A DNA stretch of 60,264 bases, filler included, from Sphacelaria rigidula (GCA_964200075.2; 7 parts of 7 records of this genome joined end to end with filler, not necessarily neighbours in it); one strand, 5' to 3'; shown: positions 11,470-49,094, counted from the first letter of the whole stretch. Numbers and translations: made by a program. Notes: generated by a model not told the origin, from the letters alone.

Positions 11470-12935
11470 ATGGCCTCTTCGGTGAGGAGGACACGGGAGA
11501 GAAAGAAGCGGGAGAGGCTGAGAAATACCAACTTGACGCCTTTGTCGCAGCTTTCCCTCCGGGGCGTGTTGCTGGAGCCAGGCCCCGCGAGTCCTTTGAT
11601 CTCCACGACGAACCTCGTGCCGGGACTTAGTTCGAGCGTTGTGAAGCTCGATCGACTCGGGAAAGGTACGAGAGGGGTCAAGTTTGTTGTGATACAAGGA
11701 AAGGTGTGGAAGATCTGTACACGTTCATGTCTTCCCGGACGTGGGGCCTTCGTTTTGTAGTCTCTTCTCAAAGTGTTCCTGTATTTTGATCGAGCAGTAG
11801 AATGTGCTACTTTCGCTTTCGGCCGATTTGGACTGATCAGAGAGTCTCTAGGCATGAGTCTCGCGATCCCTCCGTGGCTTCGCCAACCAGAGATGGAAAC
11901 GGCACAACGACTATAGAAAAGTCAAACAGACGAACAACCCGACAACCTCATCAGCTAGCACCAGAGTTCGTCAGTAGTCTCGAGTTTAAGACGGATGACA
12001 CCGAGAAGGGTCTCACCAGCGACATCTAAGCTGTGCTGATTTTTCCCCTTTTCTCTACCTGGCTCTAAATGCCGACCTTAGCAAGGAAACACGCCCAACC
12101 ATGACGGTAGATCTGTTGATGCTCTAAATGAAAGAGAGTAACGGATACCCACACATGATACACCCACAGACTGAACTGTTGTGTACAAGTTCTACTAGAC
12201 TGTCTCTACTTGACCTACTACAGTTGACTGTACTCAAATGCATTATAGTGGTCTATGTCACCTCTTGATTTCTTGGGACGTGATGCGATCGAGCCGGGGG
12301 AGGGGGCAGGCAAGAGCCGATTTAATTGACCTATTCAGCCCGCTTCTGCCGTTCGAGCCGGCTTTTGTTTCTCAATGTCGGTGCAAATTAGTGCTCAGTT
12401 GTTGACGAAACATGTCTATTCGTCCTCGCGCAACTTTCCCCGGAAAAGAAAACAGTTTTCGGTACCTCTTTGTCCCGTGGTACTAGTTGTGGTGCGTTGG
12501 TTGCACGCGAGAAACCAGACGGATGGCTTAACTCTAAACTCCGAAAACTCAATTGATCTCATCGACATGATACTGTACGTTGAAATAATCACCACAGGCG
12601 CAACGAGCAATGTTTTCCGAGCGGTCCACGCAGCCACTTTGAAAATGGTGGCCCTGAAGGAGGTGTCTGTGAGCACAGACGCAGATCGGAGGGCTGTGCG
12701 TACGGAAATGCGAGCTCTAGTCACGCAGCGACACCCTTTACTACACTCGGCCTTCACGACCGACCTGGCATCCTGCCCGCGAATTGTGGATTACTATGGC
12801 AGCGTTGTCAGAGAAAACGGAAATGCGTGTATTGCCGTGGAGTATGTCGCAGGGGGTAGTTTAGATAGCTGGCTGGACAGCGGCTATCGGTGTCCGGAGG
12901 CGTGGATCGCCCACATCGCGCATCAGGCCCTTGAG
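11470..12935 (+). CDS. Ser/Thr protein kinase, MAPKK (STE7)-like, partial; exons ~11470-11665 and 12598-12935
   Basis: Splicing G|GTACG...ACAG|GC joins VKLDRLGK-G-ATSNVFRAVHAATLKMVALKEV (Gly loop, VAxK), then SCPRIVDYYGS and IAVEYVAGGSL. The exon ends GAG|GTACG. HRD/DFG exons were not found in this contig and the 5' start is uncertain. Confidence 0.85.
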
Positions 12936-15900
12936 GTACGTAGCTGCTGTTACAACTGACTGTACTCGAATATATGTGACTGATTGTGTTTTATTTTATT
13001 TTATTTTTATACATATTTTTTTATTTCAGGGGGGGCAGTCTTGGATTCTCTCCTGTCCTGTGTCTCTTGGCCGCTTTTGCACCCTTCACCATTTGCAGGC
13101 AGGGGCCTCGAGTGCGGAATATTTATATGTTATACTACCCGGTCGCACGACACTACTATCATCTGCCCATTCCGCCGTGGCATTTATGGGTACGGTGTCA
13201 GTCCTGTCTCTTCTGTGCATTTGCCTACAACAGTACTGTAGCACCGCGCTCGGACTGTACTGTGGTCCCTGTACCTCGTATCGTATTCCATACACGGGTC
13301 AACATTTGACGATTCTGATACGTACTGCATTTGAAAAGCTTTAGACTCCCTTGTGCGATGCACACAGCTGACAAGCTACAGCACAGTACAGGCAGTACAG
13401 TCGTCGGGGTCTCTGCGCGGTCTGGTTTATCTTTCGTCTCGTATTCCTGCAAACACAACAGTTGCTGATGAGGCTCAAGTCGAGGTTCGCTTTCCCCTCT
13501 GTTGATATAGATTTGTAGCTTTCAGTTACCCACAGTCATTCCCCTCCTGATCTTCATTGCAAAGCGTATTTATACACTCCTTCCTTCACTGAACTATCCA
13601 CATCCTGGTTCCGAGGAAATCAAGTACAGTGCGCACAAAAGCTCCACAAATGCTTCATCTACAATACATGTATTGTACAGACCTCTTCCTTTTCTAATAT
13701 TTGGCAGCTCTGACGAGATGTGCATACGCCCCCTCCCCCTTCAAAGTCAAGCAAATATGAATCCCACTTTTCAACAGTCGACTTCGGAAGGCAGCAGGCA
13801 GTGTCTCAGCAGTGCAATCCTGATGTGCGGCCAGGTTCAAAATTGCATTTGTCTGGACTTCCCCCATGCCCTTTGTGGCTTGTCGAGTGCGTTATGGCAG
13901 CATCGGGCACTCGAGTTACGTGTGTGAGCGTTTGATCATGGTCCATGGTGCTCCACTTTGTTGCCGTCCGTGCCTCGCTGTGTTGAGATGGGAGTGTCGC
14001 CATGCCGTTTCTTCCTCATTTACTGAAAAAAGAACCCTTCGCTCATAAGGTCGTCTGCCCACAAGTAGGAGTTAAAGTGTTGTGCCAAAATTTCGGAACA
14101 CACACACACACACACTTTTTCCGAGATCGGTATTTCTTTTCTACTGGACGCAGGTTCCGATAGGACCGACTATTTGGATGGGTCTCCACCTGCCTGAACC
14201 ATGTTCACTTCTTTTAGTATAGTTGTTCAGACGATGCAAATTCATGGTTGAACATACCGGGGTTCAATATATTGGTCATCATATTCGGGTCTTTTCGGCG
14301 CTCACGATCCCAACAGCTCGCTCATCAACAAGGTCTTGACTCAAATCAACACCTGTGTCGACTAATGGAGCTCCGCCAGCCCGCCGCCGCATAAAGGTTT
14401 GCGGGTGGTCCTGACACTAAGCTCGCATCTCATATAATTCTGAAGCGATTCAGTCCAAAAAGAGCACATCGTACTCGGCCGATTCGGAACCAGGGCTCGA
14501 GCTATTTGTTGTTGAACCTTGAAACCAGCTTGGAACAGACCACTTGGAGAACTGATGTGTGATCGCTTCTTGAGAATCAGTGTCTACTATAGTCTCTGCA
14601 TCCTGTGTTGTTTTGTTTTATATTTCCCACGCCAAATGTTTGAACGCGAGACAAAGTAAACCTCATTTGACCCTTCGAGAGCCAAGGTGAGCCATTTGGG
14701 TCTTCTGGGCCCTGAAGTTATTGTTTGAGCAGAATTGCGTCATCCCAACAGATGCCCCATCTTGGTCAAAGAGCTGAGTATGCTCAAGGGATGGTGCTCC
14801 TGCAGCATTTTTAAACTGCGTTTATCAGAGTGTTTTTGCCGTTCCGCTCAACCTCTCGATGGCCATAATGGACCATGTGTTGAATCGGCACCTTTTCCAC
14901 TCGATAAAATACAGTAATGCGCAGATGATCCATCCGACTAGTCAATGTTGGTCCTCGACTTCCAAGAAAAACTTTTTTTTTCCGTCGGGGGTTTGGATCT
15001 TTGTTTGTGTTTTGATGAAGAGACAACGTCTATGATACCCTCAAAAAACCGTTGCCATGCGCAGACATCAGTAACTGTTGTGTTTGTAAAGACCATAGGT
15101 GTACTCGTACGGACAATACAGACAACTGAGACTGTACGGACAACTATTCAGCGCAGGCCGGCCCTCTAGCGGTGCCTTATTGCAATTTTGAACAGGTCAC
15201 TACTATTGTACAGTCAGTAGTATCTGTGATGGCGGTGACAAACAGTAGTACATGTATATAGTCATCAAACACACCCAACTCTCGACTACTGAGAAGCCCG
15301 AAGGTATAGCGTGTTTGATGGGAGGTGTATGTGCTGCAAGCGCGTGCTGGTGTGGTCTTTTATCAGGGACGTGGGTTTGCCGGAAATTTCATCCCACCTC
15401 CAAAACCCAATCAAAGTACTAGTGACGAAGGTTGACAATCTCGAAGGCACTACCCGCGGAACGACGGCGTACAAAGCACCCGACCCGCGATGGCAGTTGC
15501 AATGTCAACCATATCTGGCTGCGATCCCAGTCATACATTGGCTCAGACAGGTCGAAAGGAAATCTATCGAACCCCTGGACGGTCAGAGGGCGATCATTTA
15601 CGCGTAACAGTGTTTCCGTGAAATTGAGCGCAGAGGATACGATCGAGAGTGAAGAGCGGCCAATTAGTGAATTGATCATTTCAGTTCCGAAATGCTCCTT
15701 CGCGAGGCCCAATATGCTTTCTGTAGTAGCTTGCCATTGATGCCCTTGATATCCCTGAGTAGGATATCGACGTGTGGCTGTAAGCACGCGCCAGTAATGG
15801 ATGCAGAGAAAAGCACACACGGGATGAAAAATTGGCTTAGTTGAAGAGAATGATCAAAGCCATCATCAAGCAGCCCTCTACTCTCGATCTCAAAAAGACC

Positions 15901-23500: not shown

Positions 23501-26056
23501 AAACAACATCCAACCATACCCGCAAGCACCACCTACAGCACGGGCACCTCCAATACGTCACGCCGTCCAGCTATTCAGAAACAGACAGACACAGCTATGT
23601 GCGTTGACCACGTACATGCTACATTGGCACGATCGCGGCCACTGTCCTGAGAAGGCAATACCGCTGGCCGCTACTTACGTACTATCTCTGACGCGCGGCC
23701 TGTGTGGGTGAATAGGCTTTATTACGTAGGGATTGTCTCTCCAGCTACGGTAGAGTAACTATTCTGAATCCCCGGCGCAAAAAGAGCAGAGCGGCCCACT
23801 GACGTATGGATACCCAGAGGGTGGATCGACCCTTTTGGTACTGAACACCCCCACGGAGATTGAAGTTGATGTTTTGTGAGTCAGGCAGCATGACCATGGG
23901 TGAAAACAAAACTTGAAAGGCGTATTTGCTCTGGTTGTTGATGCCGTTTTTTTGCACGTGGTGAACATGGCTGGATGCTGCATTTACGGGGGAGTATAAT
24001 TCATGAACGCAGGACCGTAGAAAGAGCACGCGCAAAGCGGCGTGGCTCTGCCGGATGGATTCCTGCTTACATGAACCTGATGTTTGTAGCTGAACAAGGG
24101 CTGAAGTCCAAGGTGTTGTGCATGTACTGGAACCTTCTGTACGTGTCATTCGGTCGCCCGGGAGTAACGGCGGCTTTACGCACCCGAAAATCAGCACTCG
24201 TATTATTTTTCAAGTGCTAGCCGCTCCCCGTAAGGATAAGTTCGTTCGTTGCTCTTAACCCAATGGTGAATACACAGCCAGAATGAGGCTAAGCTGTCAG
24301 GTTATTTGAAGTGCGTCGGGAGTAGGTGTTGTTCATCAACGGCAGTTTCGATCTAGGCATGGCCGTGGTGGAGTTGCTATCGAATTCTACCAGGCGCAGT
24401 GCGTCTGTTGTCGAAATTTCCAGTATTGTACTGCTGTGTTCCCATTTTCTGTGTCAAATAATAAATATGGAAAAAGAGCTAGTGTCTGCACGGTTAAAGG
24501 CAGAAGCATGATCGCGTTTCAAACGTCGATCAGAGGAGTGCTGAAATCACGAAGTTCGCCCCATTTCCCCCACATTTTTCACGTTGCACGGTGGTACACG
24601 GTGGTACACGGCGGTACAGTTTGTCCATACCCTCGACGTTCGTTTTTGCGCCAGTAGCATTTGCTCTAAACAGTATCGGCACATGCTGCTACAAGTACTT
24701 CTCATTCGGATTTATTGAAGGTGCGGATAATCTCGCCATATCCAGTCGAACCGTGATATTTGTCTTATGCGAGAAATGTGGAACTGTTCATAGGTGCATA
24801 AATAGAGGGCAAGCTGCCCAGGCGCAACACTGGGTCGAGTGATCAACATCCCGTGAATGGATTGGATGATGGCCGATACTACAAGCAACATTAAGCGCCG
24901 GATCGCCTCGTCTCCCCGCCAGAGACGACCTAAAAAAAAACTCTAGTTCAGTTGTCCCTGTCACACGTACCAACATTGGTGAAGGTTGTCATGCCACACC
25001 TCCAAAATGGGGGGGGGAGTCGGCGAAGGATTCTTGTTTCCCTTGTGATCAGCTTGTCGGCCCAATTTGTGACTTTGTTGGGGGAAATATTTCTAGTTTC
25101 GATTTATGTACCATCACATCACTCCACTTTCCCTTACCATGCTCTCAGCGAACAGGTGTTTGCTTGGCTTCTTCAAGCACAAAGGTTCTGGACCCCCCAG
25201 AAACAGCGTTCGCTGTATGGCACTCTGAGCGGGGCAAGCGGTCAAAGGGTTGGCAATATCCAGCACCCGCGGTTTCTGTTCCGAGATTCAGTCCGCTGGC
25301 AGCCTCGCGAGTTTTCAGAGCATGGTTGGGTAGGCTGAGACGAACGCTAAGTTGACATGAGGGGTCAGCACGAGCGATGGAAATCTCCTCATGTCTGCGA
25401 TGAGCCGTGCGGCAGCATTCTACCATGATTGGGATTGAAGGGTTGCGGTGTTTTCGTCGAAGCATTATCCTACTGTCGATTGCTGAAATATTCCTGTAAA
25501 TGTGACCACATGTACTGCTGGTGCGATCACTGCTACTGATATGCTGCACCAAGACGGCAGCAAGCTGTGAGTCGCGACTTGTGCACATCCGTGGTAGCCA
25601 CCTTTTCATGCAGACTCTGTCTCTCCTGCATAATCAGCTATTCCGAACTCCTACAAAAGCCCATCCAGTAAAAGGGTTGATGAACTTCGATCGGGCGTCG
25701 AGGCTCAACTTCAAGTTTATACAAGCTGGGCCAGCCTAGACACGGATTTAAGCTCTAAAAGCAATATCTCATNNNNNNNNNNNNNNNNNNNNNNNNNNNN
25801 NNNNNNNNNNNNNNNNTTAATTAATTAANNNNNNNNNNNNNNNNNNNNNNNNNNNNNNNNNNNNNNNNNNNNGGGGAAAGCACTGTTTTGGGCTTGAGCC
25901 TCATCTCGAAGTTAAACCTCAATTCGCACAATTTGTTGTTGTAGGTTGAAAATCAAGATCTATTTTTTCAAATTATCAATTTCCAAGCTGCGTGAGTTTT
26001 CGCCCAATTTATTTCATTGCACTTAAGTAAATCGAGAAAGACAGAGAAACTGCAAG

Positions 26057-27043
26057 ATGCCCCGGTCAGACGACATGTTCTCGGATTCCGACGAGGATTC
26101 TTCGCCGACCACTTCGACTCCTACAACGCCGGTGAAGAAGACCAACAGAGACATGACAACCGTGAAGAAGCCACGGTCTAGACAAGATGTTCGTCGAGAA
26201 TACATGGAGTACAAACAAAGGGCTGCCAAGAATAAGGCCAATGATGCCATGGCTGATGCCAAGAATGATGCCAAGGCTGACGTCAAGGCTGACGCCAAGA
26301 ATGATGCCGACGCCAAGCCTGTCAGGAGTAAGTCAGGGGTACGAACACCGCGCAAGTCTTCGGCTTACTTGGCGGTGAACAAGCACTTCCACCAGGCTTT
26401 CAAGCACACGTCGGAGAGTGGTGACGCGGAGGCATTCAAGTACTTGCTCAAGAAGACTCCTGTTGCCGTTGTGCTTCACCACATGCATTTCCTCTTCCAC
26501 CTGAACCGCGATAACGCGAACAACATGCGATTGCTCGTGGTGTACAACGCCAAGTACAACATCGTCTCGAGGTACTTCCTGAAAGCGATGAAGTCGGAGG
26601 ACAGGGCATCTTCGGCCATACAGTCTCTGGGGGAGGTGTTGAAGCAAATCTCCAAGAAGACTCCGCTGAAGGACATCGACAACCTCCTGCATTTTACGCC
26701 AGAGTTCATCCTGATGGCAACGATCCAAGCGGGGGACATGGCTTCCGACGACAAGATTGTGTCAGAATGGGAAGTAGTAGATGCTTTCAAGCGTTCCTCT
26801 GACTTGATCGCGGCATTCTTTGGGGTGAAGAACTTCTTCGCGGAGCCCTCGAGGTTCGTCGGTCGCCAGTGTCTGATCATTTCCTGCATTTGCGGTGGAA
26901 GCGTGGATACTTTGGCCAAGATCGTCAAGAGTACGGATACCAAATGGCTTTCGGATTACACGATGCGCAAGACGCGTGAGATGAGTACTCCTCCGCAGGC
27001 GATGCTGGAGCACCTAGCGGACACGTACGGGTTGAAGATGTAG
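26057..27043 (+). CDS. Viral hypothetical protein, 328 aa, basic/low-complexity N-terminus
   Basis: Intron-less ORF with codon style similar to the adjacent polB. It has an S/T/P-rich start and DAKN/DAKA tetrapeptide repeats (26242-26317). Confidence 0.85.
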   Translation: MPRSDDMFSDSDEDSSPTTSTPTTPVKKTNRDMTTVKKPRSRQDVRREYMEYKQRAAKNKANDAMADAKNDAKADVKADAKNDADAKPVRSKSGVRTPRKSSAYLAVNKHFHQAFKHTSESGDAEAFKYLLKKTPVAVVLHHMHFLFHLNRDNANNMRLLVVYNAKYNIVSRYFLKAMKSEDRASSAIQSLGEVLKQISKKTPLKDIDNLLHFTPEFILMATIQAGDMASDDKIVSEWEVVDAFKRSSDLIAAFFGVKNFFAEPSRFVGRQCLIISCICGGSVDTLAKIVKSTDTKWLSDYTMRKTREMSTPPQAMLEHLADTYGLKM

Positions 27044-27147
27044 TTAAGAGAGTTATAGGTTTTTTTTAAGGCCGTTCTTGATGTTTCGGAATTGGAGATT
27101 TAGGGTTAGGATCAGGCTTCACACAGTTATAATAAATTCAGACCCAA

Positions 27148-30100
27148 ATGGAACTTTACCTGCATGACATCAAAATCGAGAACCGTAACCCTACCAAACC
27201 GACGGGTTTCGACAGTCACACGTACGTGCACATCTTCGCCGTGGACTCTACCGGTGACCCGGTGTTCGTCGAGGTGAAGGATTTTCGGCCATGGATGTAC
27301 GCTGAGCTTGGACCGGGCGTAGACTTCGCGTCTTTCAAGTCGGAGCTGCAGCAGCACTTTTGGTACCGGAACGTCGTGTCGTGCGAGTTGGTCCAGAGGA
27401 AGCGATTCATCGGCTTTTCGGACAACAGACTGTTCGACTACGTCCTCTTGCGCTTCACCGGCCTCCTACCGATGTTCTGTTGCCGGAAGACACTGCGAGA
27501 GACTACCTTTCAGGGACACAAAATCATCACGTACGAGGACAAGGTTGACCCCGTGCTGAAGTTTTTCCACGAGACGAAGGTTCGTCCTTCGTCTTACTTC
27601 TTTATGGAGAACTATCACAGGGTCTTTGGGGACGGGAGGACCCACTGCGACATGGAGTTTACGGTGGAGTCGAGGCACTTGTCCAACTCGTCGAGCTCTC
27701 GTCCACCTCCTCCGATGACGATGTGTGCGTACGACATCGAGTCTTCGGGCCTGGATCCCAAGACGGACTTCGTCTTCCAGGTTTCCCTGTGCTTCTCCCG
27801 CTTGGGAGACAACTTGGAGGATTCCGGAGATCACGCGTCCTCGTCTTGCAAGGACGGCATGGTGATTTGTGTGGGAAAGACCGACTCCTTGGACGGGACC
27901 CCCATCGTGGAGGTTTCAAACGAGGTTTCTCTTCTTGAGAAGTTCCGTGACGTGGTTGTCGAGCGGAAAGTCTGCATCCTCGTGGGTTACAACAGCTATC
28001 AGTTCGACGGGCAGTTCATGTACAAGAGGGCGGTCGAAACGTATTCCAGCAAAACTTTCCGGAAGATCGGGTTCCTGAGGGACGAGGAAGCGGAGCTTAA
28101 GGTCAAGATTTTGGAATCCTCCGCTCTGGGAAAGAACGAGCTGGCTCAGTTCATCATCCCCGGTCGGTTGGAGTTCGACGCACTCATGACTCTGCGGAGG
28201 AATCACAAGCTCAGCTCGTACAAGCTGAACGCCGTCTGCGAGAAGTTTTTCGGCGGAACAAAAGACGACGTTTCTTACCAGGACATCCTCGAGGCTTGCA
28301 CGACGAAGGATCCGCACAAGCTGGGCGTGATCGCCAAGTATTGCTACCAAGACTCTTGGTTGGTCCTCCGCCTTGTGGACAAGCTCAAGGACGTCTACAA
28401 CGGCATGGAGATGTCCAAGCTGTGCAAGGTGCCGCTGAATTTCATCGAGTCTCGCGGGCAGGAGGTGAAGTGCATGTCTCTCATCCTCGACCGGATCCAC
28501 GGTTCGTACGTGTGCAACCACGTCCCGGCGAAAGACAACGAATCCACGGGGTATCAGGGAGCGACGGTGATCGACGCGTCAGTGGGGTTCCACGTGAAGG
28601 ATCCGGTGGTTTGCTTGGACTTTGCTAGCCTCTACCCTTCTATCATGCGTTGGAAGAACCTGTGCTACACGACGTTTGTCATCAAGAGCTCAGGCAATCA
28701 TGACAAAGATCCAGATCCTTCTTACCTCGGCATCGACGGCGTACACTACGAACACTTCGAGACTTCACCTGGGCACTTCGAGACGTTCGCGCACCGTCCT
28801 GGAGAAAAGGGCATCCTGTCCTTGATCGAGGAGAACCTGGGCGAGTCGAGAAAGGCGACCAAGAAGCTGATGAAGGAGGTTGACAAGGAGAAGGACCAGT
28901 TCAGGTACAACCTGCTGAACTCCAAGCAGCTCGCGAAGAAGGTGACGATGAACTCCCTGTACGGCTTCTGTGGAACGTCCAACGGGGTTTTGCCTCTCGT
29001 GGCCATCGCTGCCGCCGTCACCTGCACAGGGCGAAAAATGATCGACGAGACAGCGGAGTTTGTTCGGACGACAATGGGAGCGACGGTGGTGTACGGGGAC
29101 ACCGACTCGGTGATGTGCACCTTCCCTGTTTCGGACGAGGTCAGGGCGGAGGGCGACAGGGCTCTGCTCCGTCACGCTTACGCAAAGGGTTTGGAGGCGG
29201 AGGAAAAGGCCTCGGCCCTCTTCGGCCACCCTGTGTTGTTGGAGTACGAGAAGATGTACTGGCCGTTCCTCCTCCTGTCCGAGAAGAGGTACGCGACGAT
29301 GATGTACGAGCGCCCGGACGATGTGCCCAAGATGACGTCTTCCGGTTTGGTAACTGTGAGGAGAGACAACGCCCCGGTCGTGCGTGACACCGCGAACGAG
29401 GTCATCAACCTGCTAATGGCGAAGAAGACCGACGACGAAGTCCTTGGGTACGTTCGAGGCGTTCTGCAGTCGTTGGAGAATTCTGATATACCGTTGGAGA
29501 AGCTCGTCATCTCGAACGAGTTGAAGAAGCGTGCCGAGGAGTACGCCAGCCCTACGCCGCACTCGGTTTTGTCGGGGAAGATCGCGTCGAGATCCAAGCA
29601 GCAAAAGGTATTCCGCGAAGTCGTGAAGCCTCTGTACGAGACTCCCGGGGGTTTCGACGACAAGGCCTTGTGTTTGGCGTATGCCCGACTCGAGAATCTG
29701 CGCAAGCAGCTGTCGTTCAGGGAGAAGAAGGACCTAGACATGTACGATTTCGTGGAGGGTCTGGCGAAGGGGGCGGTGGCGGTAAAGCACGCGGGGTTTG
29801 ACAAGGAGGCGGTGAGTTCGGCGGAAAGTCTGGCCAACGCTCCGGAGGGGAGGCTGGTCCAAATAGGGATCAACAACTCTTTCGACCTCGGGCAACACTA
29901 TCGCAAATTCTCTTCCTACGACAAAGTCTACTGGGAGGAACCCAGGCTGGGCAACAGGATACCGTACGTGATCGTGAGGGGCCGTGGGGCCGTCAACGAC
30001 AGGTCGGAAGACCCCAAGTACGTCGCGGCGTCGACGCATCTCAAGGTCGACACTCTGTACTACATCGTGCAGCAGTTGAAGAACCCCTTGACGGGGATAT

Positions 30101-30234
30101 TAAAGCACACTCTGGGTAATCCGGAGAGACTGAGCCAGCTCTTCACGGAGTTTTCTAGGAGGGCTTCCAACGCAAATCTAGGACGACGCGAGATTACTAG
30201 TTTTTTTACCAGGAACGTCAAGTCGAAGACTTAA
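27148..30234 (+). CDS. polB: Family B DNA polymerase, phaeovirus-like, 1028 aa, apparently intact
   Basis: Exo I YDIESSG, Exo II GYNSYQFD, Exo III YCYQDS; polymerase motifs DFASLYPS, KVTMNSLYG, YGDTDS, EKRY; C-terminal PIP-box-like EITSFF. It has no introns and no Pol-delta Cys-rich CTD. The phaeovirus assignment is from recalled similarity, not from a search. Confidence 0.97.
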   Translation: MELYLHDIKIENRNPTKPTGFDSHTYVHIFAVDSTGDPVFVEVKDFRPWMYAELGPGVDFASFKSELQQHFWYRNVVSCELVQRKRFIGFSDNRLFDYVLLRFTGLLPMFCCRKTLRETTFQGHKIITYEDKVDPVLKFFHETKVRPSSYFFMENYHRVFGDGRTHCDMEFTVESRHLSNSSSSRPPPPMTMCAYDIESSGLDPKTDFVFQVSLCFSRLGDNLEDSGDHASSSCKDGMVICVGKTDSLDGTPIVEVSNEVSLLEKFRDVVVERKVCILVGYNSYQFDGQFMYKRAVETYSSKTFRKIGFLRDEEAELKVKILESSALGKNELAQFIIPGRLEFDALMTLRRNHKLSSYKLNAVCEKFFGGTKDDVSYQDILEACTTKDPHKLGVIAKYCYQDSWLVLRLVDKLKDVYNGMEMSKLCKVPLNFIESRGQEVKCMSLILDRIHGSYVCNHVPAKDNESTGYQGATVIDASVGFHVKDPVVCLDFASLYPSIMRWKNLCYTTFVIKSSGNHDKDPDPSYLGIDGVHYEHFETSPGHFETFAHRPGEKGILSLIEENLGESRKATKKLMKEVDKEKDQFRYNLLNSKQLAKKVTMNSLYGFCGTSNGVLPLVAIAAAVTCTGRKMIDETAEFVRTTMGATVVYGDTDSVMCTFPVSDEVRAEGDRALLRHAYAKGLEAEEKASALFGHPVLLEYEKMYWPFLLLSEKRYATMMYERPDDVPKMTSSGLVTVRRDNAPVVRDTANEVINLLMAKKTDDEVLGYVRGVLQSLENSDIPLEKLVISNELKKRAEEYASPTPHSVLSGKIASRSKQQKVFREVVKPLYETPGGFDDKALCLAYARLENLRKQLSFREKKDLDMYDFVEGLAKGAVAVKHAGFDKEAVSSAESLANAPEGRLVQIGINNSFDLGQHYRKFSSYDKVYWEEPRLGNRIPYVIVRGRGAVNDRSEDPKYVAASTHLKVDTLYYIVQQLKNPLTGILKHTLGNPERLSQLFTEFSRRASNANLGRREITSFFTRNVKSKT

Positions 30235-30355
30235 ATCAAAATTACCACCATCTTTCTTCCAGGAGAGAGAGAGACGCGAGATTACTAGTTTTTTACCAGG
30301 AACGTCAAGTCGAAGACTTAAATCAAAATTACCACTCATCCTTTTTCCAGGAGAG
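30185..30355 (+). repeat. Tandem duplication (~88-bp period) of the polB 3' end and stop codon
   Basis: GACGCGAGATTACTAG(T)nACCAGGAACGTCAAGTCGAAGACTTAAATCAAAATTACCAC...CCAGGAGAG at 30185-30267 and 30273-30355. Confidence 0.92.
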
Positions 30356-30810
30356 TTTTAAGGTTAGTTGTAGATTTCTGTTCAACCTGTTTTGCGGGCA
30401 GGCAAGGGGGAAGGGGCAGAAAGTAAGTCGATGCAAACAGACTTACTTTCTTTTCTTTTTTTGTGAGTTTTAAAAAAGGTTTTGGAAAGATCCACTCTCA
30501 AGTGTCGGAAAAATATTCTCAACTATCATAGAGCAGGTTTCCTGGTCTACCAAAGAGCTTTGGCAGCAAATGCTCCGCTGTAAAAAGAGTCGGACAGGTT
30601 CCTACAGGTGTTTCCACCCAGGACTCCACAATTCCGCTTCCCACACCGAGAGCCCGTGTGTGTTAATGAAAGCAATCGACGAATGTGGTATATGTACATG
30701 CGTGAATCGACGAATATAATACACAGGATTGGTTTCTTTAACAGGGTCGTTCCGACAACGTACACTCCTCCTTTCCGACAACGTCCTACTCCGTGGCTCG
30801 TTGATTAGAC

Positions 30811-31254
30811 ATGACATTTTTCGATAAAAAATATGAGAGAAAATATGTCCAAAACATCATGTCCGGTCAAGGTAAGTCAAGCTTGGGGGTTGTTTATCGT
30901 CTGTTTGTGTTTCCTCTGAGGATTCTCTTCTTCCGCGGCCCGAAGCTGTGGGGTTACGGATTCGGAGGAGGAAGTTCTGCAGACGAAATGTGTCAGTCGT
31001 TCACGGACGTCAGAAGCGAGTTCTGGCGTTCTTCCGACGCGACACAGAGGGAGTGTTTTGAGATACTAGAAAGAAGATTCGACGCGTTCGTCGTCGGGGC
31101 TTTCGCCCTTTCGACAATCGCTGTTTGCATCCAGACCATGTACCTGTCAGTAAGCAGATATTTTTTCCTTAGGCCGTTGAACGAAGTCAATCGCAACCTG
31201 AAAGAGGTCATACGCCTTATAAGAATCGTACAAGAAGAAAATGAGAAAGGTTAG
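30811..31254 (+). CDS. Viral hypothetical small membrane protein (start possibly ATG 30859)
   Basis: Intron-less ORF with a hydrophobic segment AFVVGAFALSTIAVCIQTMYL, a two-Cys ectodomain-like part and a coiled-coil-like tail. It converges on the next gene with a 6-bp gap. Confidence 0.75.
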   Translation: MTFFDKKYERKYVQNIMSGQGKSSLGVVYRLFVFPLRILFFRGPKLWGYGFGGGSSADEMCQSFTDVRSEFWRSSDATQRECFEILERRFDAFVVGAFALSTIAVCIQTMYLSVSRYFFLRPLNEVNRNLKEVIRLIRIVQEENEKG

Positions 31255-31260
31255 TTATGT

Positions 31261-32565
31261 TTAATAAGCTAGGGCGTAGGTTTCCACCAAAGGATTGATG
31301 ACTGAGTCTTTCATGTTCAATTTTTCCACATACTCTTCCCTGACCCTCGCCCGAAGGATTTCCGACATCGCCTTGGAGTACTCTGGGACGGAGTTCGCGG
31401 TCTGGTAGGCTTACCGACCGGTGGATCCGACGGACTCGAGGAAGTCGTGCCGGATTTTCGCGGCAAGTTGTGCGATTTCTTTTTCAACGATGTTGATGGA
31501 GACGCATTTTTGCGCGTTGTCCAGGACCCCTTCGAAGACCGATATTATGCGCGATACCTTTCCTGTTCCACACACAACGACCCCGTTCTCGAATCCAGAA
31601 CTCAATCTCTTACACAGGGTCTCCCTCAAGTTAGACTCGATGTCTGGGTCGGGAATCGTCGATATTTTCCAAAGCACCATGTCCAGGACTTGTATCTGAG
31701 AAACCCCTGTTCCGGAATACTCATCCGGCGACAAGGACACAATGACATGGTGAGCGTTTGCGACTTCGTCTTCCGAGATCCCGGCGTCTTTGCAAAGCTT
31801 GACGGCATCGTTGATGACAACTTCGTGGTCTCTGAAAGACCTACCAGAGACCCTGAACTCGTCGGCCAAAGTCTTGATGTTGGTCTTCGTCGCGGACGTT
31901 ATGCCGTGGTCGTGAGTGTTCTGTGAACCCCCTCCTAGTCTTTGTAGTCTTTGTTGTCTCTGGCGTGTAGCTTGTCTGCCGTGTCTACGTGTTGTTGGTG
32001 TAGTCTTCTTTGATATTTTCATGTTCGCTTCTCTTCTCATTTTGGAATTCCTCAACTCCAGCTCTGTTGGTCTTGTGTCTTGTGTTTGAGGTTTTGGTGA
32101 TTTCTTCTTCGCTGTCATTGACTTTGCGAGTGTTACCAGAGAATTCCCGTAGGTAGTATCCATTGCTTGTCCGAGTTGGTCTTGCTCGGATATCGGATTC
32201 TCCGTCAAAGCTGTCATCTTCGCTTGTGCGTTTCCTCGGACAACGGGGTTCGGGCACTTCGTCGCGACTTCGTAGCAAATCCTGGCAATTTTTTCGTCGG
32301 GCAGGAGGTACGGGAAGAATCCCCTGGCGTACTCGTCCCCCATGTCAACGAGCGTGCTCCAGTCGTGTGACTTGTTAAAGTGGTTGATCATCGCCTGCAT
32401 GTCGTTATATTTGTTGTGGACAGCCCTCTGTTTGGTATAGACCTGTTTGACAGCCCCGACGACGCTTTGTTTAGGTATTTCTCGGTGACGCAGAATATTC
32501 AAGACTAACATGGAGACGAGCGTGGCGACGACCAACATAATCAACGGAGACTTCATTGGGGACAT
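31261..32565 (-). pseudogene. Viral hypothetical protein with N-terminal TM anchor, interrupted by an in-frame TAA at 31411-31413
   Basis: The 384-aa ORF continues in the same frame past the TAA for 49 more codons (AYQTANSVPEYSKAMSEILRARVREEYVEKLNMKDSVINPLVETYALAY*) to 31261. Motifs SQNTHDH and VCGTGKVSRI. Confidence 0.75.
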
Positions 32566-32960
32566 TTTTGTTTTTCTTTCACAAATAAATAAAATTTAGC
32601 GTTAGTCACGAAAGACTAGTGGGCACGCGCATATATTTTCAGACTTGTTGGCAATGCTTCCGCTGATGAAAAAAAAGAAAAAAACAGAAAAAACAAAAAT
32701 AAAATGCCCGTGCCGGGAATCGGATCCACTCCATACGTGAATCGACTTTAAAAGGGTAAGATTTACAAAAAATTCGACTTGAGCAGTCATTGTGTGTGTT
32801 GCACGCACTTTGAACGGGGCTTAAATGCTTACACACGCTGGTCGACGTGCATCTCGTAGAGATGTGTCGTTAGTGCAACAAGGATTGGATTGTCGGAACA
32901 TCAACGCACTAACGTCCGTCGATCGGTGAAGCACACTGGTCATTTTTTGCTTTTTTTGGC
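32535..32960. repeat. ~425-bp direct repeat, copy A (copy B at 33947-34395)
   Basis: Near-identical from ACATAATCAACGGAGAC to ...TTTTGCTTTTTTTGGC; B has an extra ~21 bp after GTTAGTCACG. Confidence 0.95.
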
Positions 32961-32974
32961 AAAGCATGCTGTTT

Positions 32975-33950
32975 GGCATGACAAAGGTTTGATTTTTCGA
33001 AATTGCCAGTGATGTCACGCATGTGTTGACTTGCACCACATGACGAAAAATTGGAAGTGATGTCACACATGTGTTGCATGACAAAGATTTTGGAATACCT
33101 ACTTATTGACTTGCACCACATGACGAATAATTGGCAGTGATGTCACACATGTGTTGCATGACAAAGGTTTGGAATACCTATTTATTGACTTGCACCACAT
33201 GACGAACAATTAACAGAGATGTCACACTATGTTGCATGACAAAGGTTTGAAATACCTACTTATTGACTTGCACCACATGACGAATAATTAGCAGAGATGT
33301 CACACATGTGTTGCATGACAAAGGTTTGAAATACCTATCTATTGACTTGCACCACATGACGAATAATTGGCAGAGATGTCACACATGTGTTGCATGACGA
33401 AGGTTTGGAATACCTATTTATTGACGTGCACCACATGACGAATAATTGGCAGAGATGTCACACATGTGTTGCAGATGTCACACATGTGTTGCATGACGAA
33501 TATTTGGAATACCTATTAATTGACTGACACCACATGACGAATCATTGGCAGTGATGTCACACATTTGTTGCATGACAAATGTTTGGAATACCTATTTATT
33601 GAGTTGCATCACATGACGAACAATTGGCAGAGATGTCACACATGTGTTGCATGACAAAGGTTTGGAATACCTATTTATTGACTTGCACCACATGACGAAT
33701 AATTGGCAGAGATGTCACACATGTGTTGCATGACAAAGGTTTGGAATACCTACTTATTGACTTGCACCACATGACGAATAATTGGCAGAGATGTCACACA
33801 TGTGTTGCAGATGTCACACATGTGTTGCATGACAAAGGTTTAGAATACCTACTCATTGACTTGCACCACATGACGAACAATTGGCAGAGGTGTCACACAT
33901 GTGTTGCATGACAAAGATTTGGTATTCCAATCTAATGACTTGCACCACAT
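32975..33950. repeat. 79-bp tandem repeat array (~11 units plus degenerate leading part)
   Basis: Consensus GATGTCACACATGTGTTGCATGACAAAGGTTTGGAATACCTA(C/T)TTATTGACTTGCACCACATGACGAATAATTGGCAGA. Unit starts: 33059, 33139, 33218, 33296, 33375, 33454/33474, 33553, 33632, 33711, 33790/33810, 33889. Confidence 0.97.
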
Positions 33951-34395
33951 AATCAACGGAGACTTCATTGGGGACTTTTTTGTTTTTCTTTCACAAATAA
34001 ATAAAATTTAGCGTTAGTCACGCAAAACGCTTTACATTTTGCATCTTTCAGACTAGTTGGCACGCGCATATATTTTCAGACTTGTTGGCAATGCTTCCGC
34101 TGATGAAAAAAAAGAAAAAACAAACAAATCAAAAGAAAATGCCCGTGCCGGGAATCGGATCCACTCCATACGTGAATCGACTTTAAAAGGGTAAGATTTA
34201 CAAAAAATTCGACTTGAGCAGTCATTGTGTGTGTTGCACGCACTTTGAACGGGGCTTAAATGCTTACCCACGCTGGTCGACGTGCATCTCGTAGAGATGT
34301 GTCGTTAGTGCAACAAGGATTGGATTGTCGGAACATCAACGCACTAACGTCCGTCGATCGGTGAAGCACACTGGTCATTTTTTGCTTTTTTTGGC
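33947..34395. repeat. ~425-bp direct repeat, copy B (runs to contig end)
   Basis: See copy A; the contig breaks just before a second 79-bp array would be expected to begin. Confidence 0.95.
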
Positions 34396-37187: not shown

Positions 37188-40100
37188 TCATGAGGTGGCA
37201 GTTGAGATGCCGGTTTTGCCTCCATCACTGCGTCTAGCATACCCGAGATTCTCGAAGTCTGGACAAGTCTGAGTCGAAAATCCTGATCCGTGGTCATCAT
37301 CAACGTCATGATAGATGGATCAGAGCCGCACAGATCGCTCAACAACAACGAGTACAGCTCGATAGCGCCGAAGGGGAAGACCAAACATGGCAAGTCATTT
37401 CTTTGGAGGACGGGTAACACATATTTGCAACGGATGACCGGGTTCATGCAAACTGCCAGACGGTGTAGGTTCGATCAAAGGCGCAACAATTCCCCATACC
37501 GTATGTGGCTCCATCTTCAGATATCTACACAAATACGGAAGCACGCACACTGTGGTATATGCACATTCCCCGTCGAGTGCAAATACACTTTTGACTGAGA
37601 AGATTTTACCTGTAATCGGACCCCCGGCAGTACAGGATGCACTCCATACCACATGCACTCACCGCATCGACCAGGTGGTACGCGACTTTTGGAGGAGTCC
37701 AGCTTAATCCCCTTCACAATATTTCTGCCGAATGTGAGGGCGGGAACAAAGCAAAGTCTCCAAATCAATGATGAGCAAAGGTGCTTGTGCGTCGGAAGGA
37801 CAAAGGCGACCATGACTTCAGGATGCCTCAACATCGACTAAGCAAATATTTCAGTCCGTCGTTATCCGGCTCGATGATTCCGGCGCTCTGACCAAACAGG
37901 GAAAGCCGCCCCTGATGAATAGGAAGCCCTTGTCAACACACTAAAGCACTAGAGCAGGCATTTTGTAAACGCGTTTGCTGGATTGAAAGCTCACCTTGGA
38001 GTTCGCGGGACGCACTGAAGTCTAGCGTTTCCGTTCAAGTCCCTACCAAAAGCAATCGCGGCAAGAACGGGCAAGGACACAGTCAAGGTTAGTACATGAA
38101 GTGGAAGAGTGACCTAGGCAAAAGGGGGGTGAAAAACCTAGACATCATGACGGAATGCCTTGCGAGGCTTTCAGACTCACTGCGTAGCACAGGCAGCATC
38201 CGAAGGAACGCTAGAAAATACCGTCGGAAGTAGGACTTTCACCACCAGCACAAGCTACAGGAAAAACTGAAATTGCCTTGCAGCAAATAACCACGCACGG
38301 ACAGACTCACAGCGTTTTGATGCTCTTGAGATCAGAAAAGAGCTCCTCCGGTAACGTGTTCAGGTCGTTCTGGCTAAGGGACCTGCACATGAGGGCGCGT
38401 GGAGCGCCGGGTTTCGAGCGGGCGGGTACGGGAGAAAAGACCTTGAATGACGTGCAAATATCGACTGAACCATACGCAGCATGTTATATCGGGGCAAATA
38501 TCCCCAGAGCAAGTAGTATATATCGGCACGTCTTGTGCTGGATTCTTAGTCGGCGCAAGATAACGTCCCCTGTCGCCATAGAAAATGCATCAAAAAATAT
38601 TCGACAAGGCGTAGAGACTCGCGAGAATTATCTCACGCGAAGAAACGGCCGAAAAGGTGTCGAACATTTCTCCAACACATCCAGCGAACTTCAAATACAG
38701 AAGTATCTGACATGTCGGAACTAGTGGGGTCGGTGGAATGAGACGCTTGCTTCTCCCACCAATCCCCTGTGCGAAGTCGATCGTTGAAAGATTACCCGGA
38801 ACGGCGCTTGGAAACAAACTCCGACACAACGCGACTCTGTCTGAGTACCGTTCTCTGTCTTGGCATCCAATGAAACAATTTACCTGCAAGTGGTTGGTTG
38901 GTAAGGTCGAGGGTACCTGAAGATCGCTGTGTGTACGGGGAAAGCGCGATAAGCATTTGGAGCTTCTGGAACGAGGCTCAAGTTTCCAGACTTAAAAGGT
39001 TAACAGGAAATAACTCACAGACTATTCAGACGACTCATGCCAGCAAACAGTCCCTCTGGAAGCATCGTCAGCTGATTGTCGAGAAGTACCCTGCGGGAGT
39101 AGTCACAAGATAGCGAGCGGGATGGAACACGATCACATTTTGGTACAAACCGATTCCTGTACATTACTGGAGTGTACTCATATGATGCTTTCCTTGGTCG
39201 TTCGACCATTGATCACGCATCCCTCTTGATGGAAGAGCACCGCTCCTAGTCCTAAAAGGAACACCTCCAACATGTGGGCGCTCATAACGTTTCTTCGATA
39301 TATGACACAAAAACCTCCAACTTCCTCATCCCCTTCTTGTTTCGCCGTCTGTGGACACCATATATCTCTACTACTTTAGCGATCGGTTTCTCCATACTGT
39401 CTGATGTACTAGACGATTTCATGCCACCTTCGTTTACTCCCCACATTTCCCCTTCCAACACGCCCCGTTCCTCTTTGTATACTTCACAGTCTGCCACTGT
39501 ATGGGCTCTACTTTATTGCTTTGCCACAGCGACAACTCTGTGCATCTACTTACTTCCTCCTCCTCTTGACTACTGTTTTTGCTTTTTTCTGGCAGGTCCA
39601 GGTTTCCCACGCGGAATCGCAGTTTCAACTTCTTCGCGGAGCTCATCGGGCCGTGCAGATATGTTTTCATCCCGATTCCCTCTCTCAGCCCCCTGTATAT
39701 CTTCATGTGCTCTTCCTCGTCTGCTTCCCGTCCCAGCGCTTGGCTTTTCCTCATGTTTATGAAGTCTGGTACTTTCGTCTTATACCCGCCACGTTCACCT
39801 ATGGACACTACCTCACCTTTGTTTCCTTCTATACCCATCCATACTTTCTCGCTACACTTTTCCACCCTGTTCCAGCCTGCCCTTTCGTTATTTTCTTCCA
39901 TACTACCCATCGACTATGGCTGGCAATCTCGTCCTTGGCATGTTCCTTACGCTTCATTGTCAATTTAATTTATCTCATGTCTACTTGGCTTAGGGGGGTA
40001 TATTCCCAATTCTGCTCTTGATACAGTTTCACTCTTCGTTGTTGATCATTCGAGAGTTCGTAGCCATGATTATCTGTACTGTTTCCAGCTGCTTCACCAG

Positions 40101-42782
40101 CTTCTCGTTCCCTTCCCATACGTCTCCCGCATATTCCAGCTTCGGTACAATCACATTCATCAGAGTACACCTCTTAATCCTAGTATCGAGGTGCGAGTCC
40201 CTAAGGGTCACATCCACCTTGCCTATCTGCGCCATACCCTTGCCTATCTGCGCCATACCCTTGCCTATCTGCGCCATACCCTTGCCTGCCACGCCATCCA
40301 TGTGTGCATCCCAATAACAGTGTTTCGAGACATCTACGCTGAGGTATGTTTACTAGTCTGCAATCGCTAATTTCTCTTCTCCCCACTTCGATTTGAATTC
40401 TACCGGGTTATCTTCACCTTCGTTGCATATAAGCACCGCGCATGTTTTTACGCTCGCTTACACTCTCCATTTCCCAGTGTACTCTAGCGCCTTTTATATT
40501 CGTTTCTGCAACCCTGCTGATGTTTCTGATATCCCCACGAAATCACCCGCGAACATCAATCTCGATACAGTATTTTTCCCCCACCTTGACTCTTCGCTTT
40601 GCTGCTTCTATTGCTACGATCATGTCATTTACACATACCTTGAATAAAGTGGGTGATGAACGCATCCTCGTGCAACTCCTTGGTGGAATATCAAAACATC
40701 TCGACAGTTCCACATCTAGTATCTTAGCACTTCCCGCACAATCTTTCATCTTCACTATTCTCGACATATTTTTGCGATCCCGGTTTCCCAAACCGTTTCC
40801 CAAAGCCCATTCTTCCATACTTTCATAGGAGTTATGTACGCCTAAAAGGAAGCGGTACGCTGCTAACCCCGCGTCTTTCCTACCTTCAATAAACTTACAT
40901 AATGTGTACACACGGCCTACGCAGCTGCGGTCCGGTCTGAACGCTGCTCGACCCTTGCTGATTGTTTTCTTCTCTAGCGTCGTTCCCATTCTATCCTTCA
41001 AAAGTATTCAAGAATTGTTTCCTTACTGTGCCCAATAGCGTTATCCCTTTGCAATTCCCTGGGCCAACCTTGTCTCCTCGCTTGAAATAATTCACTACCG
41101 CTCCTTCTCCCCACGTCTTGGGTGTGGACTCGCTTTCCCAGATCCAATTATATATTGACAACAACATGGTAACCACTCCCTCTCCCTCACACTTCATAAA
41201 TCCCTTCACTGTTTCCTCTATCCTTGCTGTCTTTCTGTTTTTGAGTTTACCTACACACGCCGTTACTTCCTCTCTTGTGAACTCTGCAATTCTTTTGAGC
41301 CATCATCTTCCCGTTTTGATACCTCTGCATTGGCGTCTGCCCGTGCGTTGATCTCCTTCTCAATTTCGGTGCCAAACGTCTCGCTAGTTGTTGGTTAGGG
41401 TTTCAGGTCGTGTCTCTAGTTTTCGGTAGTGTTATGCCAGCACTTATCTATTCCCATTCGAACTACTAACCATATTGCCCTTCTGTGCCCTCAGCGTGGT
41501 TATCCCCTTGTCTGTCTCTCCTGCCTCTTTGCCCAGTATCCCTTTTATTCCTGCCCACATCTACTTCACCCCGCCACCAAAATCTGCAGGTCAGCTGGTC
41601 GGGATTTTACAAGGCACAAAATACGGTACTACTCTTCGCGTTCCCTACACACCAAGTACGAAACCGGTACAGCCATGCACTATTCTGACAGTGTCCGGAG
41701 CTTCGTCGCTCGCTGCCGGTGGTTCATCCCCAAGCTTCGTTTGTGGGGCAGGAGTTTCGTCCTCGATGCAAAAGGACTTGGAGGCTGAGTAACAATCGTT
41801 CGCTACGATGGTTCATGCACCCCGTTTGCGCTCGGCCATCAATTTTCCTGCCTCGTACGCAGCGTATGGTCCTCAATCCCAGCAAGCCCATCGTTTCAAA
41901 TTTTGTGTACATGGACGGTCGTGCTGTGAAATACAGTCAACGGAGCTACAAATGATGGCATGGGCAAGATACTCTGTCGACTACTGCAGCGCCTTGGAGT
42001 TGCAGTGCCACTTACAAGCTTTCGATACCATTCAAGCCAAAGAATGCGCCTTCGGGTAGACGGTGTATTCGGTTCGCGTACAGGTGTAAGTGACGAAGAT
42101 GCTCCAGGTCCGAGAATATGCCTGCTGGCAACGACGTCAGCTGGTTATTGCCGAGATACCTGGGGACGTATCATGTAATTCAAGCCGGTAACATTCTGCG
42201 TCAGCGATAACGCGCAAGTCAAGTGAGACCATTCATCGCACGAAGCCGACAACACTACTACAAGCCGGGCGCGGCCGCGGGAACCACGGAAACGCTCTCC
42301 AGTCGCGGTATCATTACTTCGATTACACGTGGTCCACCTGGACTAGTGAAACAACTTGACTCGTTCTTATATGACGACACGTATCAAATCCTTTGGGTCG
42401 GTGGTAACCCCGTGTGCCGAACACCTTTTCTGCACTCACAAATATTCCAAATTCTCCAGGCCAGAGAACACTTCTTCGGGCAATCCGGAAATCTCGTTAG
42501 CGTGGAGGCTTCTGTCGATACAATGCGAGGGCGCACAACGGGAAAACAAGGGGCGGGTGGTGAGCACAGACCTTACCAACGTGTCATTCATTTCTCAAAG
42601 CCGTTCTCTGCGGACTGTAGGTCAATATCTAGTTAGGCGGCACTGTTGTGAAATCATTTTCAAACACACATGGGACATGCACTTCCTCGCATTGGCGATG
42701 TGGCACTTACAGTATCTGCAGCTCGCGTAGGCCATCGAACAGACCCTTCGGCAATTCTCGAATCATGTTGCCACCCAGGCCC
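37188..42782 (-). CDS. Leucine-rich-repeat protein, 5'-truncated; exons 42711-42782, 42440-42511, 42082-42159, 39019-39090, 38311-38382, 37995-38042, 37663-37724, probable last exon 37188-37282
   Basis: Each LRR exon is AG|..|GT bounded and phase 2-2: GLGGNMIRELPKGLFDGLRELQIL; SLHANEISGLPEEVFSGLENLEYL; YLGNNQLTSLPAGIFSDLEHLRHLHL; VLLDNQLTMLPEGLFAGMSRLNSL; SLSQNDLNTLPEELFSDLKSIKTL; then a Cys cap DLNGNARLQCVP...GRC. The last exon is less certain. Confidence 0.9.
39282..41560 (-). mobile_element. Degenerate non-LTR retrotransposon (LINE, RTE-like ORF2), intronic
   Basis: Frameshifted RT fragments in the correct order: WESESTPKTWGEGAVVNYFKRGDKVGPGNCKGITLL, AFRPDRSC, SPTLFKVCVNDM, MFAGDFVG (decayed YADD), IVPKLEYAGDVW, KLRFRVGNLDL, ADCEVYKEER. 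Confidence 0.9.
40218..40286. repeat. 21-bp triplication within LINE remnant
   Basis: (CCTTGCCTATCTGCGCCATAC) x3. Confidence 0.9.
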
Positions 42783-47894: not shown

Positions 47895-48258
47895 CAGCGT
47901 CGCGGATTTGATTTACAGGTTGTGACACGAAAGAATACGAAGAGAAAAACGGCCAAAAGGGGCACACAAGAGAAACATCCATCACCGTACGTTCAAGGTA
48001 CGCATCAAATATAAGACACGTTAAAAAATACGAAAACAAACACAAAGATTACGTAAACAAAATGCACCATCCCAAGAACACGAAATATCTCTCGCCAACG
48101 TACAGACGTCATTACGAAAGCACACTCACACACATTGTATCCCCCACAGAAGCAAAAGCACAGAGTACAACTCCCCTCCACCAAGACACTTCGACCAGAT
48201 ATGCGTTATTTTCCAACACGACCAACACACAAGATCACACTCGTCAAACCTACTCACC

Positions 48259-49094
48259 GGCCCCTCGGCCATATATGGTTCCTCTCCCGGCATTGCCCCG
48301 TCATCCCTAAAGATGTATGCATGCCCCGGGAAGTGAACTGGAAGCGGGTCACCACCACCACCACCACCACCACCACCACCACCACCACCACCACCACCAA
48401 TACCAACACCAACAACACAGCCGCCGCCGCCGCCGCCGCCGCCCATACCGAGCCCCGACTCTACAGATAATCCCCTCGGGTGGAAACGACCCCCTATGCA
48501 CCCAGCCCTGCTCTTGACCTTGGCCACACGACGCTTCTCGCCCTCGTTCTCCCTACCGTGGTACGCGACTTCGTCTCGCAGCGCCATGTTGCACAAATTG
48601 TTCGACCCAGCAGGCGGGATCATCGGCGGCGGCGACGAAGGCGCCATCGGAGCACCTAGCACTGTCTGCGGCGGAGATAGCTGAGTTGGCGGCGCCGTCC
48701 TGACCGGCGACCGAACCCCGTCCTCCCACATCCCCCAGGAATCGTCCACGGCATTGACGTTGCGGCCAACGATACTACTGTCTCCAGACGGTACCCTACC
48801 CGCACCACGGCCATCATCATCGGGAGGCGGGGTGGCGGTAGCGGAGAGGATTTGCAAGGATGTAGACGGGGCCTTGCGGCCGCAGCGCGACTTAGTACGC
48901 TTACGGTCGCCGGTGTAGTGCGACAAGACATGTGTTTCAGCGGTTGGGTTCAGTTCCTCCTCGTCTCTGTTACTCCATGCAGACCAGTGGAGGGAATATC
49001 TATCCATCATCGTCGCCATATCCCCGATCTCGCTCTCTCCGTCCGTTATCGCTCGTTGGATCGTTCGAATGTGCCTCTTCCTTTCCCTATTCAC
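48259..49094 (-). CDS. Upstream exon of probably the same uncharacterised gene, with poly-Gly tracts
   Basis: Long GC-rich ORF with donor CCG|GTGAGT at 48259/48258. The (CAC)n/(CCG)n microsatellite at 48350-48442 encodes poly-Gly. Confidence 0.55.

Follow-up and report, generated by a model that had tools for sequence, protein, structure and literature searches.

The 60,264-base stretch of DNA analyzed here (the window), from the assembly of the brown alga Sphacelaria rigidula, includes a contig that is likely a fragment of a phaeovirus-type element (Nucleocytoviricota) integrated in the nuclear genome and in early decay. The window comprises seven pieces of ~8,523 bases chained by N44-TTAATTAATTAA-N44 linkers (at positions 8525, 17149, 25773, 34396, 43019, and 51642), and the contig in question is a single 8523-base piece (positions 25873-34395) with such a linker on either side. 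Because this segment corresponds to exactly one linker-bounded piece, and because the protein database likewise assigns its polymerase to a single contig of 8,523 bases, both of its ends are contig ends and the adjoining pieces are unrelated contigs. It carries ~6.5 kb of viral genes, among them one for a family-B DNA polymerase (PolB), flanked by two blocks of repeated DNA, at both of which the assembler stopped.

The viral, phaeovirus-type nature of the contig is close to certain. Its integration is quite probable, on the basis of a very-high-copy element at the left end and of equal depths in the viral part and in a second contig that shares the right-end repeat. We also lean toward regarding the contig as a decaying relic, as opposed to part of a working provirus, on the basis of one nonsense codon and two private substitutions in PolB.

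In a translated comparison of the contig with 87 giant-virus loci, matches were confined to positions 26330-32376, and both 25873-26329 and 32377-34395 were devoid of them. No match to these 87 loci, and no viral or clearly assignable gene, was found on any of the window's six other contigs. The four intron-less viral open reading frames (ORFs) listed in a preliminary description of this DNA were all recovered: three ATG-to-stop frames on the plus strand (ORF1, 26057-27043, 328 amino acids; PolB, 27148-30234, 1028 amino acids; ORF3, 30811-31254, 147 amino acids) and one frame on the minus strand (ORF4, 31411-32565 in its open part, 384 amino acids). ORF4 is cut by a premature stop codon and spans 31261-32565 when read to its ancestral stop. 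PolB is the sole one of the four with Pfam domains and the only gene on the contig that belongs to the seven Phaeoexplorer markers; the contig has no MCP.

The family-B DNA polymerase and its placement

PolB matched the Pfam families DNA_pol_B (PF00136; 1.2e-88, 298.4 bits versus a cut-off of 23) and DNA_pol_B_exo1 (PF03104, 3'-5' exonuclease; 1.9e-27, 96.7 bits versus a cut-off of 23). It is full-length and collinear with its relatives across 100% of its length. Polymerases of this family carry the patterns DxxSLYPS (motif A), KxxxNSxYG (motif B), and YGDTDS (motif C), together with the acidic residues of Exo I, Exo II, and Exo III. All six motifs are present in the query (Exo I, DIE at 196-198; Exo II, N282..D287; Exo III, Y398..D402; motif A, D491FASLYPS; motif B, K598..NSLYG; motif C, YGDTDS at 649-654), and they are invariant in the 119 other rows of the comparison (73 phaeovirus-like and 46 more distant) or, where some rows lack a residue, in all of the remaining ones.

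The preliminary description of a full PolB with all catalytic motifs therefore stands for its length, for Exo I-III, and for motifs A-C, but not throughout. KKRY, the primer-template binding motif, reads EKRY in the query (712-715), whereas its first residue is K in 119/119 other rows, and at position 439 the query alone departs from a column that is invariant in 119/119 other polymerases. Judged from the motif, EKRY would bear on the activity of PolB rather than on its membership in family B.

An 87-bp tandem duplication (30185-30355; 1.9 copies, 95% matches) straddles the PolB stop codon. Its first copy retains the conserved PolB C-terminus, and the contigs assembled from the sequencing runs (Logan contigs) break inside it, at 30219-30318.

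The nearest named sequences to PolB are those of Feldmannia species virus (FsV; 60% identity) and FirrV-1 (Feldmannia irregularis virus a, A18; 56%), while copies from the Pylaiella and Ectocarpus genomes share 48-49%. Higher identities were found to unnamed public sequences, with 86% (88% over aligned columns) for P0002 and 61-80% for P0003-P0016. Outgroup-like rows share 32-35%, as compared to 48-88% for the phaeovirus-type rows.

Phylogenetic reconstruction was conducted by a quick maximum-likelihood search under LG+G4 (74 rows) and a quick search under LG+C20+F+G4 (42 rows), and support is given as values of the Shimodaira-Hasegawa-like approximate likelihood ratio test (SH-aLRT) that come from these quick searches only. 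Both trees paired the query with P0002 (SH-aLRT 100) and placed it within an 11-row clade (SH-aLRT 100). This clade lies inside a 15-row clade of public sequences (SH-aLRT 99 under LG+G4; 89 under LG+C20), which together with the FsV/FirrV-1 pair and P0016 forms an 18-row clade (SH-aLRT 99 in both trees). The query is thus placed beside, and not within, the pair of FsV and FirrV-1 in both trees. A branch with SH-aLRT 100 split phaeovirus-like rows from outgroup rows, and the Ectocarpus and Pylaiella copies formed a separate clade with a 335,593-base IMG/VR record (L002). From its EsV-1-like size and its pairing with the Ectocarpus copy, we infer that L002 is EsV-1.

These placements bear out the phaeovirus-like origin that had been proposed for the contig: the PolB phylogeny called for in the preliminary description groups the query with FsV and FirrV-1, away from the outgroup, and not with cellular Pol delta. 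The accompanying suggestion of a possibly new lineage is sound only in the weak sense that no named virus is close to the query, and it has to be tempered by P0002, at 86-88% identity, and by 14 further public sequences in the same clade.

End repeats, probable integration, and probable early decay

Depths given here are either those of Logan contigs or word depths summed per bin, and are not read depths. Two runs (X1 and X2) represent one sample (0.91 of sampled words), a third (X3) represents the other sample of the same study (0.40), and a fourth (X4) is from a different study with the same species label and is guessed to be RNA. Across the unique part of the contig (25921-32594), depth was 66-70.7 in X1 and 24.2-30.5 in X2, with 0 differences. 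The second sample, X3, carries pieces of the viral part, also with 0 differences; 5 of the 30 bins of the contig have no cover in this run, and nothing is inferred from that gap. No RNA run was among those listed as carrying the contig, and three runs guessed to be RNA contain next to none of the contig's words, with X4 covering the left-end repeat only.

The left end of the contig (25873-25955) holds the final ~70 bases of a very-high-copy dispersed repeat, the copies of which diverge at ~25940-25955, 100-117 bp upstream of the ORF1 start. Summed word depth in the bin 25873-26157 was 760,465 in X1, 464,823 in X2, 24,307 in X3, and 773 in X4, and the element is ~10,000 times deeper than the unique part (66-71 in X1). 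Many loose contig ends fall at 25893, 25904, 25940, and 25948. In X4, the element is found in contigs of at most 5,096 bases that contain no other part of the viral contig. The presence of this high-copy element, unaccompanied by the unique viral part, in contigs from another study points to integration of the viral DNA. No copy of the element occurs in any other contig of the window. Its identification as a tRNA-derived short interspersed nuclear element or as a known RNA was considered and rejected, as neither a tRNA nor an Rfam family was detected.

The right end (32713-34395) has a summed word depth of 880-3,980 in X1, versus 66-71 in the unique part, and consists of two similar arms on either side of a tandem array. 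Arm A (32535-32960) comprises the first ~10 codons of ORF4 and ~395 bp upstream of them, and it is 92% identical, over a 451-column alignment, to arm A' (33947-34395), a second copy that runs to the contig end. The array (33026-33950) contains ~11-12 copies of a 79-bp unit, with higher orders of 158, 257, and 336 bp, and has a summed depth of 886-3,980 in X1. Each unit contains the near-palindrome TGTCACACATGTGTTGCA. Contigs of the arms have depths of 1,070 at 32834-32975 (arm A) and 722-953 (arm A') in X1, or 11-16 times that of the unique part. A contig of X3 joins position 34268 back to 32834 (it goes back 1435), and the arms, the array, and this back-join together indicate that a ~1.41-1.44-kb unit recurs in head-to-tail arrangement. 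A separate 17,848-base contig ends in the same array family (12 differences) and has a depth of 68.4 in X1 and 28 in X2, equal to that of the viral part.

One statement of the preliminary description does not survive these results. It had reported no host-type repeats, whereas the very-high-copy element, the 79-bp array, and the 92% direct repeat are all present. It had also considered integration not to be visible; both ends are in fact repeated DNA, and the left-hand one is a very-high-copy element that occurs without the viral part in contigs of another study, which points to integration.

Evidence for decay comes from ORF4 and PolB. ORF4 contains an in-frame TAA at 31411-31413, past which 49 conserved codons continue in frame to a stop at 31261-31263. 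In an alignment, its relatives extend ~50 residues past the end of the query through nearly invariant columns, and a tblastx match crosses the stop (31641-31282). Logan contigs of X1 and X2 cover the TAA with 0 differences. With respect to PolB, private losses at invariant columns were counted by leave-one-out across 120 rows, of which 103 had none, 11 had one, 5 had two (the query included), and 1 had three.

According to the scenario that we favor, ~6.5 kb of viral replication-neighborhood genes would have been integrated between two blocks of repeats. In a live virus, a PolB with a proofreading exonuclease would copy the viral genome after induction; the copy described here is most probably a silent relic at an early stage of decay. 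The viral ancestry, the gene order, the repeats at both ends, the stop codon, and the two substitutions are direct results, whereas integration and loss of function are conclusions drawn from them.

Several observations weigh against this scenario. The viral part was not seen to adjoin any unique host sequence, both flanks being repeats. The right-hand repeat begins in the 5' end of ORF4 itself and could be a viral repeat region rather than host DNA, and the equally deep 17.8-kb contig could likewise be of viral origin. X1 and X2 probably derive from the assembly's own sample and are then not independent of it, and X3 is from the same study. ORF4 may remain functional despite the loss of its 49 C-terminal residues. 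Likewise, two private changes in PolB are not extreme, given that 5 other rows have at least as many. PolB is moreover a full open frame, and its end branch (0.095 under LG+G4 and 0.089 under LG+C20) is similar to that of its sister (0.084 and 0.089, respectively).

One alternative is that the contig represents a small portion of a phaeovirus provirus that is intact, latent, and inducible, or of a virus that was replicating in the sequenced sample, with repeats that are viral and sequence changes that are tolerated. In its favor, the PolB frame is uninterrupted from end to end, all catalytic carboxylates are retained, and the branch length is normal. The inclusion of the ORF4 start and its upstream region in the right-hand repeat unit indicates that this unit arose from viral sequence. 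Repetitive elements in a Feldmannia virus are the subject of Lee et al. 1995, judging by its title as cited in PMC12993054, and endogenous elements in Ectocarpus can reactivate, according to the available portions of PMC13236599 and bioRxiv 10.1101/2025.09.15.676377. We nevertheless consider this alternative unlikely. The left-end element, ~10,000 times deeper than the unique part and present in contigs of another study without it, fits a host mobile element and not viral DNA. An intact provirus is also difficult to reconcile with a nonsense codon ahead of 49 conserved codons in ORF4 and with private changes at two PolB columns that are invariant in all 119 other rows. The depth of the viral part is that of the 17.8-kb contig and is not raised. 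Finally, no comparable tandem arrays adjoin PolB or ORF4 in L002 or in a giant-virus bin contig with the same gene order (L001; see below), and the core of the 79-bp unit had 0 matches in IMG/VR.

A second alternative, that the contig is a contaminant, with viral or proviral DNA from some other organism present in the sample (e.g., an epiphytic or endophytic alga), is very improbable. In its favor, the contig is short and unplaced, and the window offers no viral or clearly assignable gene on its six other contigs. However, the left-end repeat is abundant in all four runs, including one that belongs to a separate study but bears the same species label, which ties the contig to the genome of the labelled organism unless the junction is chimeric, and the second sample has the viral part with 0 differences.

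The catalytic subunit of cellular Pol delta has a C-terminal CysA/CysB metal-binding domain. The notion that PolB is such a subunit and the contig ordinary host DNA can practically be dismissed: although Pol delta catalytic subunits are the best sequence matches of PolB among solved structures (5.2e-100) and share its fold and its order of exonuclease and polymerase motifs, these matches span residues 23-815 only, the last 250 residues contain 1 Cys and hence no CysA/CysB tail, introns are lacking, and PolB is nearer to phaeovirus-type than to outgroup-like rows, falls in a viral clade in both trees, and has neighbors (ORF1, ORF3, and ORF4) that are all related to genes of giant-virus records and match neither Pfam nor NCBIfam families.

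Neighboring genes and the other contigs

The order of genes on the contig recurs in other giant-virus sequences. In L001, an ORF3 homolog (37% identity, 3e-22) lies 3' of two PolB-like genes. Next to it, on the opposite strand, comes an ORF4 homolog (33%, 2e-60), and both the order and the orientation of these genes match those on the contig. In L002, an ORF3 homolog (30% identity, 4e-11) is directly downstream of PolB, and a search limited to a range of 10 kb around PolB identified no homolog of ORF1 or ORF4. The order PolB, ORF3, FirrV-1-A47-like gene is thus common to the contig and L001, and the order PolB, ORF3 is common to the contig and L002. The second PolB-like stretch of L001 (5830-8238) is more distant (31% identity to the query) and lies ~1.7 kb 3' of the phaeovirus-like PolB.

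None of ORF1, ORF3, and ORF4 matched a Pfam, PHROG, or NCBIfam family, and no sequence match of these neighbors in the PDB had an E value under 0.04. ORF3 is small and, on inspection by eye, has hydrophobic stretches; by sequence it is a putative small membrane protein of the kind that follows PolB in other phaeoviruses. It had 450 relatives at E<=1e-3, of which 4 were at 1e-30. A Pfam family was also lacking in 17 of its relatives, and a search of Atlas with ORF3 gave no match.

ORF4 (57 relatives at E<=1e-3) is a homolog of FirrV-1-A47 and of an uncharacterized FsV protein. Its N-terminus is a long hydrophobic helix. With a structural model of ORF4 (predicted local distance difference test, pLDDT, of 81.5), the BFVD matches comprised an uncharacterized protein of Tetraselmis virus 1 (1.1e-15), FsV B5LWL2 (1.6e-11), and FirrV-1-A47 (1.2e-9), and neither a sequence match nor a fold match was found in the PDB. 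A homolog in G001, the giant-virus bin that includes L001, shares 34% identity (1.9e-57).

ORF1 (38 relatives at E<=1e-3) also has a homolog in this bin (40% identity, 1e-69), as well as a match in a 199,675-base IMG/VR contig (42%), and its sequence relatives mark it as a probable conserved phaeovirus-type gene. Its model (pLDDT 83) has a disordered N-terminus and an all-helical body. The latter is possibly an ankyrin-like repeat; the matches of this kind are weak (best BFVD E value, 0.026; VIA Z of 6-8.2), and Z values of 6-7.8 over 130-150 residues are within the range of that tool that is common for helical repeats.

Pattern scans of IMG/VR with the ORF4 and ORF1 alignments returned distant or bin contigs only. 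For 12 relatives of ORF4 and 6 of ORF1, the size of the longest contig equals that of a contig carrying a PolB relative, which suggests that these relatives are co-located with relatives of PolB.

Several features were noted on the other contigs of the window. A frame on the plus strand (12330-12959, 209 amino acids) contains part of a protein kinase domain (Pkinase, 4e-09; positions 5-110 of the 263-position profile) and resembles a single exon of a host kinase gene. Two stop-free frames on the minus strand share a stretch of 57-62% GC. The longer (45453-47912, 819 amino acids) matched no Pfam or NCBIfam family, no Atlas entry, and none of the giant-virus loci, and the shorter (48126-49133, 335 amino acids) matched no Pfam or NCBIfam family and none of the giant-virus loci. 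A third stop-free frame on the minus strand, in the last contig (56589-58310, 573 amino acids), had no Pfam or NCBIfam family. Positions 39001-42000 show strong strand asymmetry, with a GC skew of -0.21 to -0.32 and an AT skew of -0.21 to -0.23, and no tandem repeat scoring at least 150 was found there.

Relation to known viral insertions in brown algae

Among characterized phaeoviruses, FsV and FirrV-1 ('subgroup B') are the most similar to the element described here. They have the nearest named PolBs, share the 18-row clade with the query, and include the proteins matched by the ORF4 model. They differ in that the query falls outside their pair, in its own clade of 15 sequences. In the available sections of PMC6116031, placement in Phaeovirus subgroup B was based on a concatenated phylogeny of MCP and PolB, and the kelp-associated subgroups C and D were defined solely on a 59-residue fragment of MCP. 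A purely capsid-based definition of this kind gives no way of matching subgroups C and D to the PolB clade of the query. It is conceivable, if somewhat doubtful, that this 15-sequence clade, which has no named or isolated member, is the polymerase counterpart of subgroup C or D, and that the ~1.4-kb repeat is a genuine viral repeat region (e.g., related to replication or packaging) and not a host satellite.

Viruses of the EsV-1 type ('subgroup A'; L002 and the Ectocarpus and Pylaiella copies) belong to the same genus-level group and share the PolB architecture and an ORF3 homolog after PolB. Integration into brown algal genomes is part of their lifestyle, as described in the available portions of bioRxiv 10.1101/2024.02.19.579948 and PMC12993054. 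They share only 48-49% PolB identity with the query and fall in another clade, and L002 has no ORF1 or ORF4 homolog within 10 kb of its PolB.

The closest parallels to the contig as a whole are the Phaeoexplorer viral regions and the endogenous viral elements of Porterinema fluviatile, which likewise are short regions on short contigs, with mono-exonic genes, a partial core gene set, and signs of degeneration; there is no categorical difference between them and the contig. The accessible part of the Phaeoexplorer survey (bioRxiv 10.1101/2024.02.19.579948) describes 792 viral regions in 72 genomes, with presence in 67/69 brown algal genomes. The regions are 2-50 kb in 81% of cases and mostly on short contigs, and their genes are mostly mono-exonic and silent. 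A complete provirus is defined there by seven markers (A32, D5 helicase, D5 primase, MCP, PolB, SFII, and VLTF3). In one alga, as reported in the available sections of PMC11890097, seven such elements were found, and one alone had the full core gene set. Measured against these partly accessible sources, the integrated fragment proposed here is an ordinary example of a known phenomenon, the near-universal presence of viral insertions in brown algae.

The contig adds one more data point on giant-virus DNA scattered through brown algal genomes, and it would not surprise a specialist. According to the same portion of the Phaeoexplorer survey, the screen considered contigs over 10 kb only, and an 8.5-kb contig such as this one would therefore have been skipped if the assembly was included. 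Contigs of less than 10 kb, left out of what appears from that portion to be the largest published screen, still carry core viral genes, and counts of viral insertions are therefore lower bounds. In addition, the query PolB helps to fill a clade that neighbors the Feldmannia viruses and lacks named members. Finally, the element appears to be at a very early point of decay, with one nonsense codon, two private PolB changes, and otherwise open genes, which makes it useful for dating insertions.

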